64,000 nucleotides of DNA from Pseudomonadota bacterium. GTDB taxonomy: Bacteria > Desulfobacterota > Desulfobacteria > Desulfobacterales > Desulfatibacillaceae. The stretch spans positions 3,851 to 67,850 of the forward strand of contig JBDRTO010000088.1 of the NCBI GenBank assembly GCA_043823985.1. Reading direction: 5' to 3'. Below the pieces are notes generated by a model. That model was not told the origin of the DNA and made no database searches. It was given only the letters and a program-made list of their open reading frames with translations. The position numbers and the translations under genes are program-made. This document shows, one piece after another, positions 24,725 to 32,311 of the stretch; position 1 is the stretch's first letter, and the number at the start of each line of letters is the position of its first letter.

Positions 24725-25021
24725 TCAAGAGGAAGAGCCTTTTCCCGCCCTGGAATAAGGCCTCCGTGGGGGCCCCACGCGCGGCGCGCGCGCTCCTGTG
24801 CCCAAAGCCCGGAACCCATGCGCGGCCAAGCCCGCTCCCCAACCCAGGATCGGCCAGGAAAACCAAAGACGCTCGGGAAATGCAAGCAGGTTGATGGTCA
24901 CAATCACCATATTCACAAACAAATACAGAAGAAGATGCTTGTAGAAAACGGTTTTTTTCCGAACCCGCCCCCGGGCCTCCAGGAGGGCTTTTTCGTACTG
25001 CTCGTCCAGGGGATGTTCCAT
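24725..25021 (-). CDS. 2TM-domain-like small membrane protein
   Basis: 'RVRKKTVFYKHLLLYLFVNMVIVTINLL....WFSWPILGWGAGLAAHGF' follows the two-helix 2TM-domain pattern. An AAGGAA SD lies 5 nt upstream of the ATG. The Gly/Arg/Pro-rich tail may not be genuine. Confidence 0.55.
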   Translation of the reverse strand: MEHPLDEQYEKALLEARGRVRKKTVFYKHLLLYLFVNMVIVTINLLAFPERLWFSWPILGWGAGLAAHGFRALGTGARAPRVGPPRRPYSRAGKGSSS

Positions 25022-25291
25022 GGATTCCTTTCCCTTTCGTGGGTCGGCCCTGCGACCTCCGGGCGACCTTGAGGTTCATGCTAATCCCCGGGTCCGTGCA
25101 ATGCAACACACATGCGTGCGACCAAACTGAACTCCCTACCCTTCTCCGGCTTGAAAGACTGTCCCAGGGCTTCATTCCGGGCACTGAAATGCATTCCTTC
25201 TTGGATTCATGGAAAAGCCATGCTACATACCCCCATACTGCAAAATAGAACATCCTTTGGGAAGGCTGAAAATTTTAACCCTGTTTTGCCG

Positions 25292-25756
25292 ATGGGGGCT
25301 TGCATGGGCATTTTCGGCTGGTGGAAAAGAGACCAGGAACCCGATCTGGACGGACTCACGGGTATCGCCAAACTCATCGGGGAGGACATCGACCGGCTGG
25401 TGGCCGAAACCTTTGCCGCCTACCAGGAGCTTCTTCTCACCCAGCCACCGGGATTCATCGTGCCCGCCGTGTGGGGTGCCCGCAAGGACGGGGAACTCAC
25501 GGACGAGCAGAAATCCATCTATAAGAAGGTCGTCCCGGCCATGAAGCGGGTTTTGGAAAACCTGCGCTTCCGCAAGCTCTCCCGGGGGCAGGAATTCGCC
25601 ATTGATTTCCTGGTCCGGGGTCTCATCATCACCAAGATCGCCTGCCTGGTGGAGATAGGCAAGAGCAGGTCCAAGCTCTTTCCGGACACCAATTCCCGGG
25701 AAAAAGACGAGCAACTGGAACGCTTGAGCCGCATGGAGCCCCTGGGCCGGGCCTGA
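25292..25756 (+). CDS. hypothetical protein (about 150 aa)
   Basis: The ORF has reasonable amino-acid composition. Start is ATG 25292 or 25304 (GGGGG 7 nt upstream of the latter). No motif recognised. It is convergent with the radical SAM gene. Confidence 0.45.
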   Translation: MGACMGIFGWWKRDQEPDLDGLTGIAKLIGEDIDRLVAETFAAYQELLLTQPPGFIVPAVWGARKDGELTDEQKSIYKKVVPAMKRVLENLRFRKLSRGQEFAIDFLVRGLIITKIACLVEIGKSRSKLFPDTNSREKDEQLERLSRMEPLGRA

Positions 25757-25759
25757 TGA

Positions 25760-26869
25760 TCATTCCCGGATTCCGCACACCCTGACCGCGCTTTGGTTCA
25801 GATAAGCTGACAAACCCTTTTCCCCAGGCCAGAACCCCATGCACCTTTCCCATACCTCCTGGTCTTCCATGCAAAAATAGGCGGTCACTTCCGGTGCCAC
25901 TGCCTGTATTTCCTCAACCATCTCCCGGCACAGGGCCATGCGGATGGGCTTGAACACCCGCATCTTGTTGTCCAGTCCCGGCACCATCTCCCCCAGAACC
26001 AGTTCCGAACCCGGACGCCGCTCCCGGATCATCTGGCCCAGAGAAGGCGGATAGCGCAGCGTGCCCAGACTTATCCAAACCACCCTCTCCGACGGCACCC
26101 TGGCAAAAACCTCCCGGACCACCTCGCGGTAATCCTTCTCACATCCGGGATACGGTACAAGAGGATCGAAATGGAACGCCAGGGGATAGCCCCATTCCGC
26201 GCACCGGGCTGCTGCGGAGAGCCTTGCCGAAAGGCTGGTCGCCCCTTTTTCGTGTTCCCGGACCACCCTGGGGGCATTCATGCTCCAGGCCAGGATGGTT
26301 TTTCCCCGGTGATCCAGGCCTTTCAAGGCATCGATGTTCACAGTCTTGGTTTTCAGTTCCAGCACGGCGTGGTCCTGGGCCGCGAATCGTTCCACCAATC
26401 TGGGGGTCAGGTCCCAAAGAGACTCCCACACCAAGCTGTCCGTAAACTCGCCGGTTCCCATGCGTCGGGTGGCCGGATCCCGGGCTTTAAGCACCTGATC
26501 CAGTTCGGAAAACAGTTCATCCTGGTTGGCGAAAAGTTGCATGACCGGAGGGTGAAAATAGGTCTGGAGCACGCAGTAGGCGCAGTCCATGGGACAGAAC
26601 GTGCCCACATGAAGGATGGTGTATCCACAACAGGTGTATTCGCTCGTGCCCGGGCAGGGGCGAATGAAGCGGCCCTGGTTCCGGGTGATGTACAGCACGG
26701 ATTTGGCCGCAGCCACGGGGTCTGGCAAGGAAAGGACATGGCGAAAAACTTCGCCTGGACCGTCCACGAGTTCCACCGGGACCCCGGCTAAGCGTTGACG
26801 GATGTCCCGGGCCAGGGGGGTATCCTGGACCCGCAGGTCCACAAACAGCTGGCGGATGGCGGGCTTCAT
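25760..26869 (-). CDS. spore-photoproduct-lyase-family radical SAM protein
   Basis: 369 aa. The 'CPMDCAYC' (CxxxCxxC) cluster is preceded by 'CCGYTILHVGTFC'. Overall layout is SplB-like. Confidence 0.8.
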   Translation of the reverse strand: MKPAIRQLFVDLRVQDTPLARDIRQRLAGVPVELVDGPGEVFRHVLSLPDPVAAAKSVLYITRNQGRFIRPCPGTSEYTCCGYTILHVGTFCPMDCAYCVLQTYFHPPVMQLFANQDELFSELDQVLKARDPATRRMGTGEFTDSLVWESLWDLTPRLVERFAAQDHAVLELKTKTVNIDALKGLDHRGKTILAWSMNAPRVVREHEKGATSLSARLSAAARCAEWGYPLAFHFDPLVPYPGCEKDYREVVREVFARVPSERVVWISLGTLRYPPSLGQMIRERRPGSELVLGEMVPGLDNKMRVFKPIRMALCREMVEEIQAVAPEVTAYFCMEDQEVWERCMGFWPGEKGLSAYLNQSAVRVCGIRE

Positions 26870-26873
26870 GAGG

Positions 26874-27826
26874 TCATTCCCCCATCACCCGTTTCAGGGC
26901 CGGATTTTTTAGAAGATCCAGGGTGCGGGAAAGATGTTGGGAAAGTTCCTTTTCGGAGTCGAATTGCAGGCGCAGGACGTGGGTGGTGCCCTCGAAGAAT
27001 GGAGGCGGCTCCCATTTCATCCGGGGTGGGAGGCGCAGACCGGCCACCAGCCGATCCCTTTCCGCAGTTTCCCGGTCCACGGTGGGATACCGGCGCTGGT
27101 GCAAAATCGCCCGGACTCGGGTAGCAGCAGCGTTCTTGTCTTTTTCTTCCCGGATGGCAGCCCCGATGCCCGGGTCCTCCAGAACCTGGGCGGGGGAAAG
27201 GTTTTCCCGTTCCGCGATTTCCCGCACCAGGGACAGGATCTGGCGCTGACGGGAAAGGCTCTGGGGAAGCTCCAAAAACAGGCGGGCCAGGGCCTTGGCG
27301 TTACTTTCCTCCAGCCTGCCCAGGTCCAGAGCCACGGGAAAGGCCAGCGCACCGGCTTCCAGAGCTTCCTGGAGTGTGGCTGGCATCCGGCACAGGCTTT
27401 CCCAATCCTTCAGACGAGGAATGGGGGCTTCCAGGCCCAGGGCCCGGCGGACAAGGTCCTGCCGGGCGTCCCAGGCCAAATCCGGCCCCAGGAGAGCAAT
27501 AGCCCGGGAGGTTTCCAGCAGGCCCAGGGGCCGGGCAACGGCATTTAGGGAAACCGCCGCAAAGGCGCAGACCCCGTCCGGCGTGGACAGAGGAAGGACC
27601 ATGGCTGGAACCGGCGAGCATCCCAGTTCCCGGCAGGCTTCCCGGCGGGAGAATCCGTCCACCACCTGAAAACGGCCGTCCTGCCTTTCCCTCAGGAGAA
27701 CCGGAGCCAGCAGCCCCGCCTCCCGAATAATGCCCACCCAGCGGTTCTCTCCGTTGGTCCCGGAGATACGGAACGTGATGTCCGAGCCGGAAACTGTCTC
27801 CAGGGGGACTTCCTGGAACTCGGGCG

Positions 27827-27830
<4 letters not shown>
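26874..27830 (-). CDS. ParB/Srx N-terminal-domain protein with uncharacterised helical C-terminus
   Basis: '[32 protein letters not shown]' resembles the ParB-N box, with GERRxRA degenerated to GFSRREA. ATGA overlap with the purC stop. There is a 4-nt gap to the radical SAM gene. Confidence 0.65.
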
Positions 27831-30427
<2,597 letters not shown>

Positions 30428-30445
30428 ATTTTGGTGCCAGCCCAG

Positions 30446-32311
30446 CTATTCTGAATCGGGAGCCTGGTTTTTTCCGGGCTCCCGATTTTTTTTCTCCAGG
30501 GCTTCCCGAATTTTTTTGGCCACCGTGTGGTTCATACCGGGCACGGCGGCCAGTTCCTCCTCCGAGGCATCCCGAAGCCTCTTCACGCTCTTGAATCGCC
30601 GCAGCAAGGCCTTTTTTCGCTTCTCCCCCACCCCGGGCACATCGTCTAAGACCGACCGCCGAACCGTCCGGCCCCGCTGAATCCTGTGCAGGCTGATGGC
30701 AAAACGATGGGCCTCGTCCCTCACCCGGGAGAGGAACACCAGGGCGTCCCGGTCCTTCCCGAACATCACGGGGTTGGCCTGGCCGGGGAGATAAATTTTA
30801 TCCTCCGCCTCTCCCTTTTCCTCCTCCTTCTTGGCGATGCCCGCGCAGGGAACCTTTTCGATGAGACCCAGTTCCGCTAGGACCTGAACGGCCATGGAAA
30901 GCTGCCCCCTGCCTCCGTCCACCAGGAGCAGGTCCGGCAGTGGTTCCGCCTCCTTTTCCGGGTCAAAACGCCTGGCCAGGACATGGCGCATGGCACCGTA
31001 GTCATCCCCGGACATCACATCCCGGACCTTGTAACGGCGATACGAATCCTTGTCCGGCGCGCCGTCGGAGAAAACCACCTGGCTGGCCACTGTCTGGCTA
31101 CCCTGGGTGTGGGAGACGTCAAAGCATTCCAGACGGCCCGGGGGACCGGTCAGCCGCAGCCTGCGCCCGACCTTGGCCAGGGCCTCCTTTTGGTACTCCT
31201 CACCGGAAAGGCGGCGTTCCAGGGCATCAACGGCGTTTTGCCTGGCCATGTCCGTGAGGCGCACTTTCTCTCCCCGTTGGGGAACCAGGATGCGCACCCG
31301 GCCGCCCCGGGCATCTCCCAGTCGGTCCTCCACAAAGGCCGCGTCCTCCAGGGGCTCGGAAACCAGGATTTCCGGCGGCACGAAGGCGTCCTTTTCGTAG
31401 ACCTGGAGCAGGAAATCCTGGAGCAGATTCCGGTCCTGGCTCACCGCCTCCAGAAAGGGATAGTTCCGGGAACCCACCAAAAAGCCCCCCCGCACATGGA
31501 GCATGGTGACCATGCATCCCGCGGGCCGCGCCACCAGGGCTGCCACGTCCCGGTCCTCGAAATCCGTGGTCACGGCCACCTGGCGCTCCACCGTCTTCTT
31601 GATGGCGAACATCTTGTCTCGAAATTCGGCGGCCCGCTCGAACTCCTCTCCTTCCGAGGCCAGGAGCATCTTCTCCTGGTATTTCTTGAGGAGGGAGGGG
31701 GTCTTGCCCTTGAGGAACAGGATGGCCTCCTGAATCATCTCCTGGTACTGGTCCGGGTCCACGAGAAGGCAGCAGGGGCCCAGGCAGTTGCCCATCTGAA
31801 AGTTGATGCAGGGGCGAGTGCGCCGGGGCAACTCGGGTTTTTTGCATCTGCGAATACGGAAGGTCTTGTGGATGATCTTCAACGTCTCACGGGCCGCGCC
31901 CGCAGAGGTGAACGGCCCGAAATAGCGGGCTCCGTCCTTTTTCACCTTTCTGACGATCTCCAGGCACGGATAGGGCTGGTTCTGGTCGATGCGCAGGCTG
32001 GGATAGAGCTTCCCGTCTTTCAGCACCACGTTGTACCGGGGCTTGTGGCGCTTGATAAGGTTGGATTCCAGGACCAGCGCCTCGTGAGCCGTGGCGGTCA
32101 GAATGGTCTCGAAAATGGCAATTTTGGAGACCAGGACATCCGTCTTTGGATCCCGGTTGGCGGGCCGGGCGAAGTAGGAGGAAACGCGCCTCTTCAGATT
32201 GGCGGCCTTGCCCACGTACAGGATGTTTCCGGCCTCGTTCTTCATAAGGTACACGCCGGGCCCCTGGGAGGTGGCCGCCAATTTTTCCAGAATGTGGGCT
32301 GGGGTGTCCAT
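30446..32311 (-). CDS. uvrC: excinuclease ABC subunit C
   Basis: 621 aa. GIY-YIG 'PGVYLMKNEAGNILYVGKA', a UVR domain, and a C-terminal (HhH)2 'LDDVPGVGEKRKKALL'. Confidence 0.95.
   Translation of the reverse strand: MDTPAHILEKLAATSQGPGVYLMKNEAGNILYVGKAANLKRRVSSYFARPANRDPKTDVLVSKIAIFETILTATAHEALVLESNLIKRHKPRYNVVLKDGKLYPSLRIDQNQPYPCLEIVRKVKKDGARYFGPFTSAGAARETLKIIHKTFRIRRCKKPELPRRTRPCINFQMGNCLGPCCLLVDPDQYQEMIQEAILFLKGKTPSLLKKYQEKMLLASEGEEFERAAEFRDKMFAIKKTVERQVAVTTDFEDRDVAALVARPAGCMVTMLHVRGGFLVGSRNYPFLEAVSQDRNLLQDFLLQVYEKDAFVPPEILVSEPLEDAAFVEDRLGDARGGRVRILVPQRGEKVRLTDMARQNAVDALERRLSGEEYQKEALAKVGRRLRLTGPPGRLECFDVSHTQGSQTVASQVVFSDGAPDKDSYRRYKVRDVMSGDDYGAMRHVLARRFDPEKEAEPLPDLLLVDGGRGQLSMAVQVLAELGLIEKVPCAGIAKKEEEKGEAEDKIYLPGQANPVMFGKDRDALVFLSRVRDEAHRFAISLHRIQRGRTVRRSVLDDVPGVGEKRKKALLRRFKSVKRLRDASEEELAAVPGMNHTVAKKIREALEKKNREPGKNQAPDSE

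Follow-up and report, generated by a model that had tools for sequence, protein, structure and literature searches.

The locus lies on the reverse strand of the window, i.e. the whole stretch of 64,000 nucleotides that was analysed, and comprises a run of genes encoding a metallophosphoesterase, a SAICAR synthetase, a ParB-like protein and a radical SAM enzyme of the spore photoproduct lyase (SPL) family. The features are the following, from the upstream to the downstream end of the run:

28820-29326, minus strand: metallophosphoesterase (YfcE-like) gene; PF12850, 100.5 bits.
27827-28798, minus strand: purC (SAICAR synthetase) open reading frame; PF01259 (SAICAR_synt), 265 bits, and NF010568, 437 bits.
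26874-27830, minus strand: gene of the 318-residue ParB-like partner; start ATG at 27830-27828, stop at 26876-26874.
27360-27830, minus strand: residues 1-157 of the partner, predicted ParB-type N-domain and helix-turn-helix (HTH), from ParB_N, the Noc/ParB profile and Foldseek.
26874-27359, minus strand: residues 158-318 of the partner and the stop codon, C-terminal module (C-module), from a family-specific profile.
25760-26869, minus strand: SPL-family radical SAM gene, 369 residues; start ATG at 26869; PF20903 (SPL), 99.6 bits.

The stop codon of purC (TGA, 27829-27827) overlaps the start codon of the partner gene (ATG, 27830-27828) in the sequence ATGA, and the SPL-family gene begins 4 nucleotides past the 318-residue frame, the spacer reading CCTC on the coding strand. 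Both junctions are as the earlier note had described them, as are the two motifs on which it relied: GFSRREA, located at residues 59-65 of the 318-residue protein, and CPMDCAYC, located at residues 92-99 of the SPL-family protein (nucleotides 26573-26596). The true start of purC is probably ATG 28711: in the longer frame, the alignment to homologues and to NF010568 does not begin until residue ~26-30. No terminator-like site was found between purC, the partner gene and the SPL-like gene; scans for promoters, terminators and palindromes over 25000-30600 gave nothing above shuffled controls, and the sole palindrome of that scan falls within the SPL-like gene. Judged from gene geometry, the genes would be co-transcribed and translationally coupled, the metallophosphoesterase gene probably being the first of the transcription unit that continues through purC, the partner and the SPL-like gene.

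The order metallophosphoesterase, purC, ParB-like, SPL-like recurs in related genera, at 9 of the 11 loci compared, and the arrangement is not due to chance. The metallophosphoesterase gene, syntenic in 10 of the 11 family loci, is a conserved neighbour inside the family only. Across the phylum, purC immediately precedes the ParB-like gene at 21 of 39 sampled loci, and it is a conserved neighbour in Desulfobacterales and in some other families; in other families its place beside the ParB-like gene is occupied by a glycosyltransferase gene of family GT2. The earlier note spoke of a purine-biosynthesis transcript, but there is no purine operon here. The coupling to purC is one of conserved synteny, and its position does not imply a functional meaning.

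The SPL-family protein scored 107 bits against TIGR04070, below the equivalog cut-off of 400, and 42.6 against TIGR03886, below the cut-off of 437.6. Its AF2 model (pLDDT 83.4) matched the SPL of G. thermodenitrificans (4RH0, 4K9R, 4FHC) over 347-352 columns with TM 0.73-0.84 (0.77-0.84 for the matches over 347 columns) and E 7e-21 to 4e-20, the next-best radical SAM fold reaching E 2e-4. Its only grouping is with SPL, an enzyme that acts on DNA, and not with a family of known non-DNA function, the case considered in the earlier note. SPL homologues abound outside spore formers, with matches in more than 5,000 database clusters at E ≤ 1e-20, and we know of none that has an established substrate. 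The nearest relatives bear names such as Desulfatibacillum, Desulfosarcina and Desulfobacterales, names of non-sporulating sediment anaerobes, in agreement with the presumption that the host does not form endospores.

At 21-22% identity, the enzyme has in common with SplB of Bacillus and Clostridium (4FHC-4FHG, 4K9R, 4RH0; TIGR04070) the whole-chain fold, the CX3CX2C motif (C92-P-M-D-C96-A-Y-C99, invariant in 39 relatives), the equivalent of Tyr96, and a cysteine at the H-donor position of the Clostridium type. This cysteine, C72 (nucleotides 26654-26656), is invariant in the SPL-like family, as are C81 and C333, and aligns with S76 of the G. thermodenitrificans SPL, the position of the Clostridium H-donor Cys77 (PMC3467042). 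In contrast to SplB, the enzyme carries Cys81 and Cys333 as extra invariant cysteines and a 6-residue insert past residue 79; Glu141 stands at the position of Cys140, the Bacillus-type H-donor being Cys140/141 (PMC3467042); and Tyr98, strictly conserved among true SPLs (PMC3467042), is replaced by Val100 here and by Ile or Val in the family. A beta-hairpin is predicted at a place that may correspond to the DNA-inserting hairpin of SplB, which has an Arg/aromatic tip for flipping the base; its strands fall at ~296-297 and 303-304, in a part of the model where pLDDT drops below 50 (residues 283-303). The motif D300-x-K302-M-R304-[Y/V]305-F-K-P is conserved at this predicted hairpin, near the putative equivalent of the SPL hairpin tip, Arg304/Tyr305. 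The C-terminus of the enzyme alone gave no match in a sequence search of the PDB.

The 318-residue protein matched ParB_N (PF02195) at 27.0 bits (cut-off 26.3) and TIGR00180 at 33.2 and 31.4, below the cut-off of 58.45; full-length matches to it were found in 35 of 41 relatives. The profile of the partner family retrieved Noc/ParB chains from the PDB at E about 1e-19 to 6.5e-19 over positions 8-231, and the AF2 model of the protein (pLDDT 90.4) had Noc, ParB and KorB as its best Foldseek matches (E 2e-8 to 1e-5, 190-229 columns). The ParB-like fold assigned in the earlier note is upheld by both the profile (E 6.5e-19, residues 8-231) and Foldseek (Noc, ParB, KorB), and from the alignment and the model the N-domain with its predicted HTH is that of a true ParB/Noc paralogue. 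The match of SbnI to the partner profile (E 2e-5) covers the N-domain only.

The predicted nucleotide site supports the same relationship, the partner having in common with the ParB, Noc and KorB clamps the N-domain, the HTH and the cytosine/phosphate-contacting residues R21, S34, G39, R62 and N96. Box II of the partner is GFSRREA, box III holds N96 and R100, and G59, R62, N96, R100 and E106 are invariant among 48 partner relatives. In M. xanthus ParB, CTP is bound by R54, S68, G73, R95 and N127, and its hydrolysis depends on Q52 and E93 (PMC13229309). The equivalents of the CTP-binding residues are widely kept (R21 in 37 of 48 relatives, S34 in at least 90%, G39 in 46 of 48, R62 and N96 in 48 of 48), whereas the equivalent of Q52 is T19 (T, R or S across the family) and that of E93 is F60 (F in 45 of 48). 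By alignment, the partner retains the predicted CTP-binding residues without both hydrolysis residues. The protein encoded here departs from its own family around the nucleotide site by S61 for R, L95 for D/E, A99 for Q and V44 for P. It also differs from ParB, Noc and KorB in lacking a ParA neighbour, the genes beside it being purC and the SPL-like gene, and in the replacement of the C-terminal dimerisation domain by an unrelated module of ~160 residues. No parS-like palindrome was found near the locus, and a canonical ParB (176 bits) is encoded on another contig of the same genome (G000:C139).

The remainder of the partner, which the earlier note had regarded as unassigned helical sequence, comprises a ParB-type HTH and the new C-module of ~160 residues. 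The predicted layout of this module is helices, a beta-hairpin and then two helices, and it carries the motifs RR[FY]P (246-249) and PPxxFEG (275-281). No Pfam family matched these ~160 residues, and no significant sequence relative of the module was found in the PDB. In about ten of the sampled genomes, G079, G181, G148 and G115 among them, the module is encoded on its own and the ParB part is missing. Stand-alone modules are proteins of 165-190 residues, annotated as 'hypothetical proteins' and without Pfam domains; independent gene calls place the GT2, the stand-alone module and the SPL gene side by side.

The pairing was analysed by co-occurrence and gene neighbourhood in a sample of 301 Desulfobacterota genomes, of which 185 carry the SPL-like gene, 181 the C-module and 180 both (Fisher p 5e-76, with no correction for phylogeny). 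The exceptions are five genomes with the SPL-like gene only, four of these being weak, doubtful matches, and one with the module only, at a contig end. In 91 of 129 genomes the module adjoins the SPL-like gene on its upstream side and shares its strand, and order and strand are fixed in all 91 adjacent cases. At the level of the ParB-like gene, the order ParB-like to SPL-like on one strand was observed in 56 of 95 genomes, from many families of the phylum. The two genes co-occur and adjoin far beyond this genome, as the pairing proposed in the earlier note requires; the SPL-like enzyme has its constant companion in the C-module and not in the ParB head. Outside the phylum, one Spirochaetaceae genome encodes a partner of 298 residues together with SPL.

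In a scan of named genomes with the SPL-like alignment, the matches of which were filled by Desulfobacterales, 47 of 70 named SPL-like loci of this order had no ParB-like gene within 3.5 kb. The neighbours of the SPL-like gene in 80 Desulfobacterales loci included an SNase homologue (41), a PAS-RNase T exonuclease (11) and a cytidylate-kinase-like protein (9). No gene is conserved downstream of the SPL-like gene phylum-wide, CysZ-like, SNase and thioredoxin-like genes being seen there, and no conserved neighbour for a precursor peptide, a lipid carrier or sugar-nucleotide synthesis was found. There was no natural ParB-like/SPL fusion among the genomes examined: an apparent fusion of 639 residues in G109 was rejected, a run of N/X separating two genes, and long frames in G245, G182, G169, G115 and G251 were rejected as stop-to-stop frames which overlap the upstream gene in high-GC DNA. 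An origin from a defence system or a phage was likewise rejected: PADLOC gave nothing, PHROGs a generic ParB only and BFVD generic phage ParBs only.

The third co-inherited member of the set is the GT2. A soluble orthologue is encoded in this genome at G000:C177:15255-16067, unlinked to the locus. The GT2 has a single clear orthologue (47-61% identity, the next-best GT2 reaching 33-40%), found in 168 of the 301 genomes; 165 of these are among the 185 with the SPL-like gene (Fisher p 3e-57, without a correction for common descent). In 46 of 127 genomes the GT2 gene immediately precedes the partner gene, the same-strand order GT2, partner, SPL-like being present in many lineages, and about 60% of the sampled Desulfobacterota genomes retain the pair, along with the GT2. 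The protein is a generic SpsA/TuaG/WcaA-like enzyme, below every NCBIfam equivalog cut-off, and cross-matches GT2s from two radical SAM pathways, those of mycofactocin and arsenosugar; its acceptor could equally be a sugar or a lipid.

Two phage systems provide the closest comparisons. The thymine dioxygenase 5mYOX176 requires the ParB-like activator ParB176 on dsDNA (PMC13229309). As at this locus, where the DNA substrate is inferred, a ParB-like gene lies beside that of an enzyme acting on DNA bases, and the phage pair offers the best precedent for the proposed role of the partner as an adaptor or activator. The enzymes differ, 5mYOX176 being an oxygen-needing Fe(II)/2-oxoglutarate dioxygenase and the enzyme here an SPL-fold radical SAM protein. 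So do the ParB-like proteins: those of the 5mYOX phages have no DNA-binding domain and end in a C-terminal domain of the ParB type, unlike the partner here; and the phage pairs are mobile, whereas the Desulfobacterota pair is chromosomal and vertically inherited. The second comparison is gp53 of phage M6, an SPL-like radical SAM isomerase of a thymidine hypermodification in DNA (PMC8989533), i.e. an SPL-fold enzyme that modifies, and does not repair, a thymine derivative. Its reported likeness to SPL is distant (13% identity), no ParB-like partner has been reported for it, and it acts in a pathway with a 5-hmdU kinase and amino-acid transfer, neither of which was seen here. No description of the SPL-like/ParB-like pair was found in the literature, and a 2025 survey of ParB-CTPase-fold fusions mentions no radical SAM enzyme, SPL or glycosyltransferase.

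We tentatively favour a radical SAM system that depends on the partner and has DNA as its target, in which modification is likelier than spore-photoproduct repair; the partner, the SPL-like enzyme and the GT2 are, with the same reserve, considered parts of one conserved system. The idea that the genes are mere neighbours by descent, with the ParB-like protein as a transcription factor or second nucleoid protein that has nothing to do with the enzyme, could draw on the Desulfobacterales loci lacking a nearby ParB-like gene (47 of 70) and on the tendency of that gene to stay with purC; it is most improbable against the near-perfect co-occurrence even of unlinked genes (180 genomes with both, 5 SPL-only, 1 module-only), the order and strand fixed in 91 of 91 adjacent cases, and the retention of the stand-alone C-module beside the enzyme. 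Direct-reversal repair is a more serious but still unlikely alternative, in which the enzyme would be a lyase for an SP-like or radical-induced pyrimidine cross-link in anoxic, dark habitats and the GT2 would be co-inherited for other reasons; the ParB-like protein would be a nucleotide-gated, DNA-bound adaptor that recruits the lyase to damage in duplex DNA. The SPL fold in full, the retained SAM-cluster motif and Tyr96 equivalent, the invariant cysteine exactly at the Clostridium-type H-donor position and the predicted hairpin (~296-304) with its conserved motif near the Arg304/Tyr305 tip all agree with a lyase, as does a single-copy, vertically inherited, housekeeping-like SPL-like gene matching no defence family, with a ParB-like neighbour that matches only generic phage ParB. 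Against it stand the score of 107 bits where the SPL equivalog cut-off is 400, the changes Tyr98 to Val/Ile and Cys140 to Glu, and hosts that are non-sporulating sediment anaerobes. Moreover, to our knowledge no known SPL needs a partner protein, whereas the enzyme here has one in 180 of 185 genomes, and usually the GT2; SPL comes with neither. The GT2 is inherited together with the SPL-like gene in 165 of 185 genomes and often shares its operon. Direct reversal offers it no obvious role, and as a third co-inherited component it speaks against a simple repair of lesions.

A substrate other than DNA is somewhat unlikely, though less so than repair: a small molecule, nucleotide-sugar, glycoconjugate or RNA nucleoside would be tailored by the SPL-like enzyme and the GT2, with the C-module as a substrate-presenting chaperone and the ParB half as an add-on for NTP binding or regulation. 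The example for such an add-on is SbnI, in which a kinase of the ParB/Srx fold is fused to a DNA-binding regulator. The ParB/Srx fold does include small-molecule kinases, matches to SbnI and SerK being seen; the nearest relatives of the GT2 are polysaccharide, teichuronic-acid and EPS transferases, besides its cross-matches to the mycofactocin and arsenosugar enzymes; the partner lacks the ParB half in some lineages; and the neighbours are purC and, elsewhere, the cytidylate-kinase-like protein. However, all SPL-fold enzymes characterised so far act on DNA, the likeness to Noc/ParB (E about 1e-19), which spans N-domain and DNA-binding domain, greatly exceeds that to SbnI (E 2e-5), nuclease genes often adjoin the SPL-like gene, and the precursor-peptide, lipid-carrier or sugar-nucleotide genes of such a pathway are not among the conserved neighbours.

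In the favoured, DNA-directed system, for which DNA as the substrate is suggested by homology and domain fusion, the C-module would dock on the SPL-like enzyme and license it, and the nucleotide-bound ParB half would place the complex on duplex DNA, by analogy with the phage ParB-like activators. The enzyme would then flip out a pyrimidine, the 5'-deoxyadenosyl radical would abstract an H atom, and C72 would serve as a radical relay or H-donor; the GT2 would act on the product of the enzyme. The outcome would be an oxygen-independent pathway of chromosomal DNA base modification and not spore-photoproduct repair. The dedicated DNA-binding or clamping partner proposed in the earlier note is partly supported by the conserved pair and by the predicted ParB-type N-domain and HTH, but the constant part is the C-module; a clamping partner cannot explain everything because the module occurs without the ParB N-domain in about ten genomes, and loading onto DNA by the missing ParB half therefore cannot be essential to the chemistry.

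In trypanosomes, base J is made by a JBP thymine hydroxylase and the glucosyltransferase JGT (GT-A fold), a system that is oxygen-dependent and eukaryotic. A more specific version of the favoured system, and a distinctly doubtful one, is that strict anaerobes possess an oxygen-independent, chromosomal counterpart of base J or phage 5-hmU, in which the enzyme, licensed by the C-module and brought to duplex DNA by a ParB-type CTP switch that does not hydrolyse, would activate the C5-methyl (or C6) of thymine, and the GT2 would add a sugar. The likeness to base J is one of logic only (activation of thymine in duplex, then glycosyl transfer), the activating enzymes being non-homologous, and the modified base of the Desulfobacterota system is a predicted one.

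The C-module of ~160 residues is a new protein module outside Pfam, and the three-protein set of an enzyme, a near-constant partner and a GT2 makes the question of the substrate of SPL homologues testable. The ParB fold would here be a likely non-hydrolysing, nucleotide-binding enzyme adaptor on the chromosome, a role seen earlier only in phage dioxygenase systems. In the case of repair, the system would point to a kind of DNA lesion that matters to anaerobes. A modified DNA base, if this is the product, would be the first native modification of bacterial chromosomes to be made by a radical SAM enzyme, and it would occur widely in anoxic sediments; were the counterpart of base J real, a glycosylated pyrimidine would be present in the DNA of a large part of the Desulfobacterota and of some other phyla.

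The locus lies on the reverse strand of the window and includes four genes, among them those of a ParB-like protein and of a radical SAM enzyme of the spore photoproduct lyase (SPL) family.

Features of the locus in the window.
28820-29326, reverse strand: metallophosphoesterase gene, upstream of purC on the same strand
27827-28798, reverse strand: purC (ORF as listed); SAICAR_synt 265 bits (Pfam), NF010568 437 bits (NCBIfam)
26874-27830, reverse strand: ParB-like protein, 318 aa; ParB_N 27.0 bits against a cut-off of 26.3, residues 34-82 (Pfam)
ATG 26869, end 25760, reverse strand: SPL-like enzyme, 369 aa; PF20903 99.6 bits (Pfam)

The ORF listing and the raw sequence bear out the arrangement described in the earlier note: the purC stop (TGA, 27829-27827) overlaps the ATG (27830-27828) of the 318-aa ORF (ATGA), whose stop lies 4 nt before the SPL-like ATG at 26869. 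No terminator-like sites were seen in a scan between the four genes. The listed purC ORF opens with a TTG, 29 codons (28711-28798, reverse strand) upstream of the first aligning residue; since its relatives and the NF010568 HMM align from residue ~30 onward only, translation probably begins at ATG 28711. A 214-aa ORF (25112-25756, forward strand) runs towards the SPL-like gene, the two stops being 3 nt apart, and has no family match in Pfam, NCBIfam, PADLOC or PHROG; four related genera (L002, L008, L009, L011) keep its C-terminal ~110 residues at the same site, which makes an internal true start probable. An imperfect palindrome of 16 nt (88% complementary, 26638-26665) within the SPL-like coding sequence is probably due to chance.

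The pairing proposed earlier proved to extend well beyond the genome of the window, in both co-occurrence and adjacency. A full-length ParB-like match was present in 35 of 41 related genomes, and the order metallophosphoesterase, purC, ParB-like, SPL-like in 9 of 11 loci of the family. In an even sample of 301 Desulfobacterota genomes, the whole ParB-like protein matched 95 genomes (E<=1e-10) and the SPL-like protein 185; in 56 of those 95, the SPL-like gene came after the ParB-like gene in the same orientation, with a median distance of 75 nt between the matched stretches. A candidate fusion of the two genes was rejected as an assembly gap.

The constant partner of the SPL-like enzyme is the C-terminal module of the ParB-like protein (C-module, residues 158-318). 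Where an SPL-like gene lacked a ParB-like match, profile searches found short genes directly upstream that match positions 158-319 only of the ParB-like profile (genomes G079, G181, G148, G115). A profile built from the C-module alone (A5) matched 181 of the 301 genomes, and 180 of these carry the SPL-like gene (Fisher p 5e-76, uncorrected for phylogeny); in the sole exception the module sits at a contig end. Conversely, five genomes have an SPL-like match without the module, four of them weak, doubtful matches only. Of the 129 genomes with both positions listed, 91 have the module on the strand of the SPL-like gene and immediately upstream of it; 12 of these 91 are in open frames of <=230 aa, about ten being genuine stand-alone modules. 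Independent gene calls likewise placed stand-alone proteins of 165-190 aa directly before a PF20903 gene, and "hypothetical proteins" of 165-190 aa without Pfam domain match the C-module in the protein database (E 1e-50 to 1e-20). Outside the phylum, a Spirochaetaceae chromosome carries a 298-aa partner and an SPL gene. What was described earlier as unassigned helical sequence beyond the ParB N-domain comprises a ParB-type helix-turn-helix (HTH) region and the C-module; the latter belongs to no Pfam family, and sequence comparison with the PDB gave it no significant relative.

The partner protein combines a ParB/Noc half that has lost the ParB hydrolysis residues with a new module. A profile of 12 relatives matched Noc/ParB chains in the PDB (E 6.5e-19 to 1e-15) over positions 8-231, a stretch that takes in the HTH region as well as the nucleotide-binding N-domain. 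The earlier ParB-fold call holds at the structure level: the best PDB matches of the AlphaFold2 model (pLDDT 90.4, pTM 0.74) are Noc, ParB and KorB, while PadC, sulfiredoxin, SbnI and a serine kinase match the N-domain only. Forty-eight relatives share a box II signature, G-F-R-R-[IVL]-x-A-C, a box III signature, [DE]-N-x-x-Q-R-x-L-N-x-x-E, and invariant G59, R62, N96, R100 and E106. Mapped on the roles given for Myxococcus xanthus ParB in phosphate and cytosine binding and in hydrolysis (Q52, E93) (PMC13229309), the binding residues R21, S34, G39, R62 and N96 are retained, whereas both hydrolysis residues are lost (T/R/S at Q52; F at E93 in 45 of the 48), which suggests that the ParB half would bind nucleotide without turnover. 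The reading of GERRxRA as degenerated to GFSRREA was correct, and the window copy is somewhat degenerate at the nucleotide site (S61, L95, A99, V44). The TIGR00180 score of 33 is far below the NCBIfam cut-off of 58; because a canonical ParB is encoded on another contig of the same genome (G000:C139, TIGR00180 176 bits), the 318-aa protein is a paralogue and not the segregation ParB. Its phage-family matches are to generic phage ParB families only, and neither it nor the SPL-like protein matched a PADLOC defence family. A HMMER scan of 1.84 billion representatives returned 1,662 clusters at E<=1e-30. Of the top 150, all but one (257 aa) measure 305-351 aa, and almost every one aligns over its full length.

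Among relatives of the SPL-like protein, the closest bear names such as Desulfatibacillum alkenivorans, Desulfosarcina and Desulfobacterales bacterium; these are non-sporulating, anaerobic Desulfobacterota. Asked whether it groups with a radical SAM family of non-DNA function, sequence and fold matches pointed to SPL: the only PDB sequence match is the Geobacillus thermodenitrificans SPL, the AF2 model (pLDDT 83.4) aligns with SPL structures over 347-352 columns (TM 0.73-0.84), and the next radical SAM fold is a match weaker by sixteen orders of magnitude. In the family profile compared with the SPL S76C/C140A mutant chain, invariant C72 (motif R-P-C-P-G-T) falls exactly on residue 76, the site of the hydrogen donor Cys77 of Clostridium SPL, which replaces Bacillus Cys140/141 (PMC3467042). 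The enzyme has the SPL fold and a putative SPL-like active-site cysteine placed as in Clostridium. The Bacillus donor position is Glu141, and the position of Tyr98, strictly conserved in true SPLs, is Val100 (Ile or Val in the family); the Tyr96 equivalent is retained, and C81 and C333 are also invariant. A low-confidence predicted hairpin (~residues 296-304), adjoining a conserved D-x-K-M-R-[Y/V]-F-K-P motif, appears to fall where SPL has its Arg304/Tyr305 hairpin. The TIGR04070 score of 107 is far below the NCBIfam cut-off of 400. By fold the enzyme thus belongs to the SPL superfamily, yet it does not qualify as SPL proper.

The purine-biosynthesis context suggested earlier needs correction. 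The ParB-like gene has purC directly before it in 21 of 39 sampled loci, and among 80 named Desulfobacterales loci (L063-L142) purC accompanies all 15 adjacent ParB-like/SPL-like pairs with enough upstream sequence; the SPL-like gene has moved away in 47 of 70 such loci. purC is therefore a conserved neighbour and not part of a purine operon. Next after the moved-away SPL-like gene comes a staphylococcal-nuclease (SNase) homologue in 41 of the 80 loci; the gene before it encodes a PAS-RNase T exonuclease in 11 loci and a cytidylate-kinase-like protein (PF13189) in 9, the latter also being present in the complete genome G301. There, a 6.4-kb insert between the two genes (L042, G301:C1:2439000-2452000) carries TetR, an MFS transporter, an acetyl-CoA-synthetase-like (acyl-CoA synthetase) enzyme, and M50-like and cytidylate-kinase-like proteins; a gap of 1 nt separates the SPL-like gene from a downstream gene of the CysZ/EI24 family.

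Independent gene calls, together with Pfam scans upstream of those ParB-like genes that lack purC, placed a soluble family-2 glycosyltransferase (GT2) before the partner. Its orthologue, easily told apart (best match 47-61% identity, next GT2 33-40%), occurs in 168 of the 301 genomes, 165 of which carry the SPL-like gene (Fisher p 3e-57, uncorrected for phylogeny); in 46 of 127 genomes it immediately precedes the partner gene, both on one strand. The three genes are co-inherited and, in many lineages, lie in a fixed order. In the genome of the window (G000) the GT2 is unlinked to the locus.

G000:C177:15255-16067 (L155:3711-4553), reverse strand: GT2 orthologue

It sits beside rpoA-rplQ, on which it converges, has the motifs DDGS, DSDD and ED and no obvious membrane segment, and stays under all NCBIfam equivalog cut-offs; by sequence, polysaccharide-type GT2s are the closest to it in the PDB. 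Upstream of it lie two large ORFs, of 635 and 629 aa, that match no NCBIfam family. In genome G064 the SPL-like gene (G064:C2:107705-108661) has four in-frame stops (two TAG, two TAA) and the GT2 orthologue (G064:C3:92840-93661) one in-frame TAG, perhaps a sign that the module is decaying jointly; the SPL-like gene is free of in-frame stops in two further genomes of the genus.

That these associations are mere synteny is highly improbable. Literature searches found no description of the ParB-like/SPL-like pair, and a survey of ParB-CTPase-fold fusions from 2025 is silent on radical SAM, SPL and glycosyltransferase. There are precedents for the proposed mechanism: the phage thymine dioxygenase 5mYOX176 requires ParB176 specifically on dsDNA (PMC13229309), and in phage M6 the SPL-like radical SAM isomerase gp53 works on a DNA base (PMC8989533). 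A DNA-directed modification system is our tentative reading; a substrate other than DNA is somewhat less probable, and direct-reversal DNA repair is unlikely. In such a modification system the C-module would dock on the SPL-like enzyme, the ParB half, fixed in a form with bound nucleotide, would position the enzyme on duplex DNA, the enzyme would abstract a hydrogen from a flipped-out pyrimidine, and the GT2 would act on the product.
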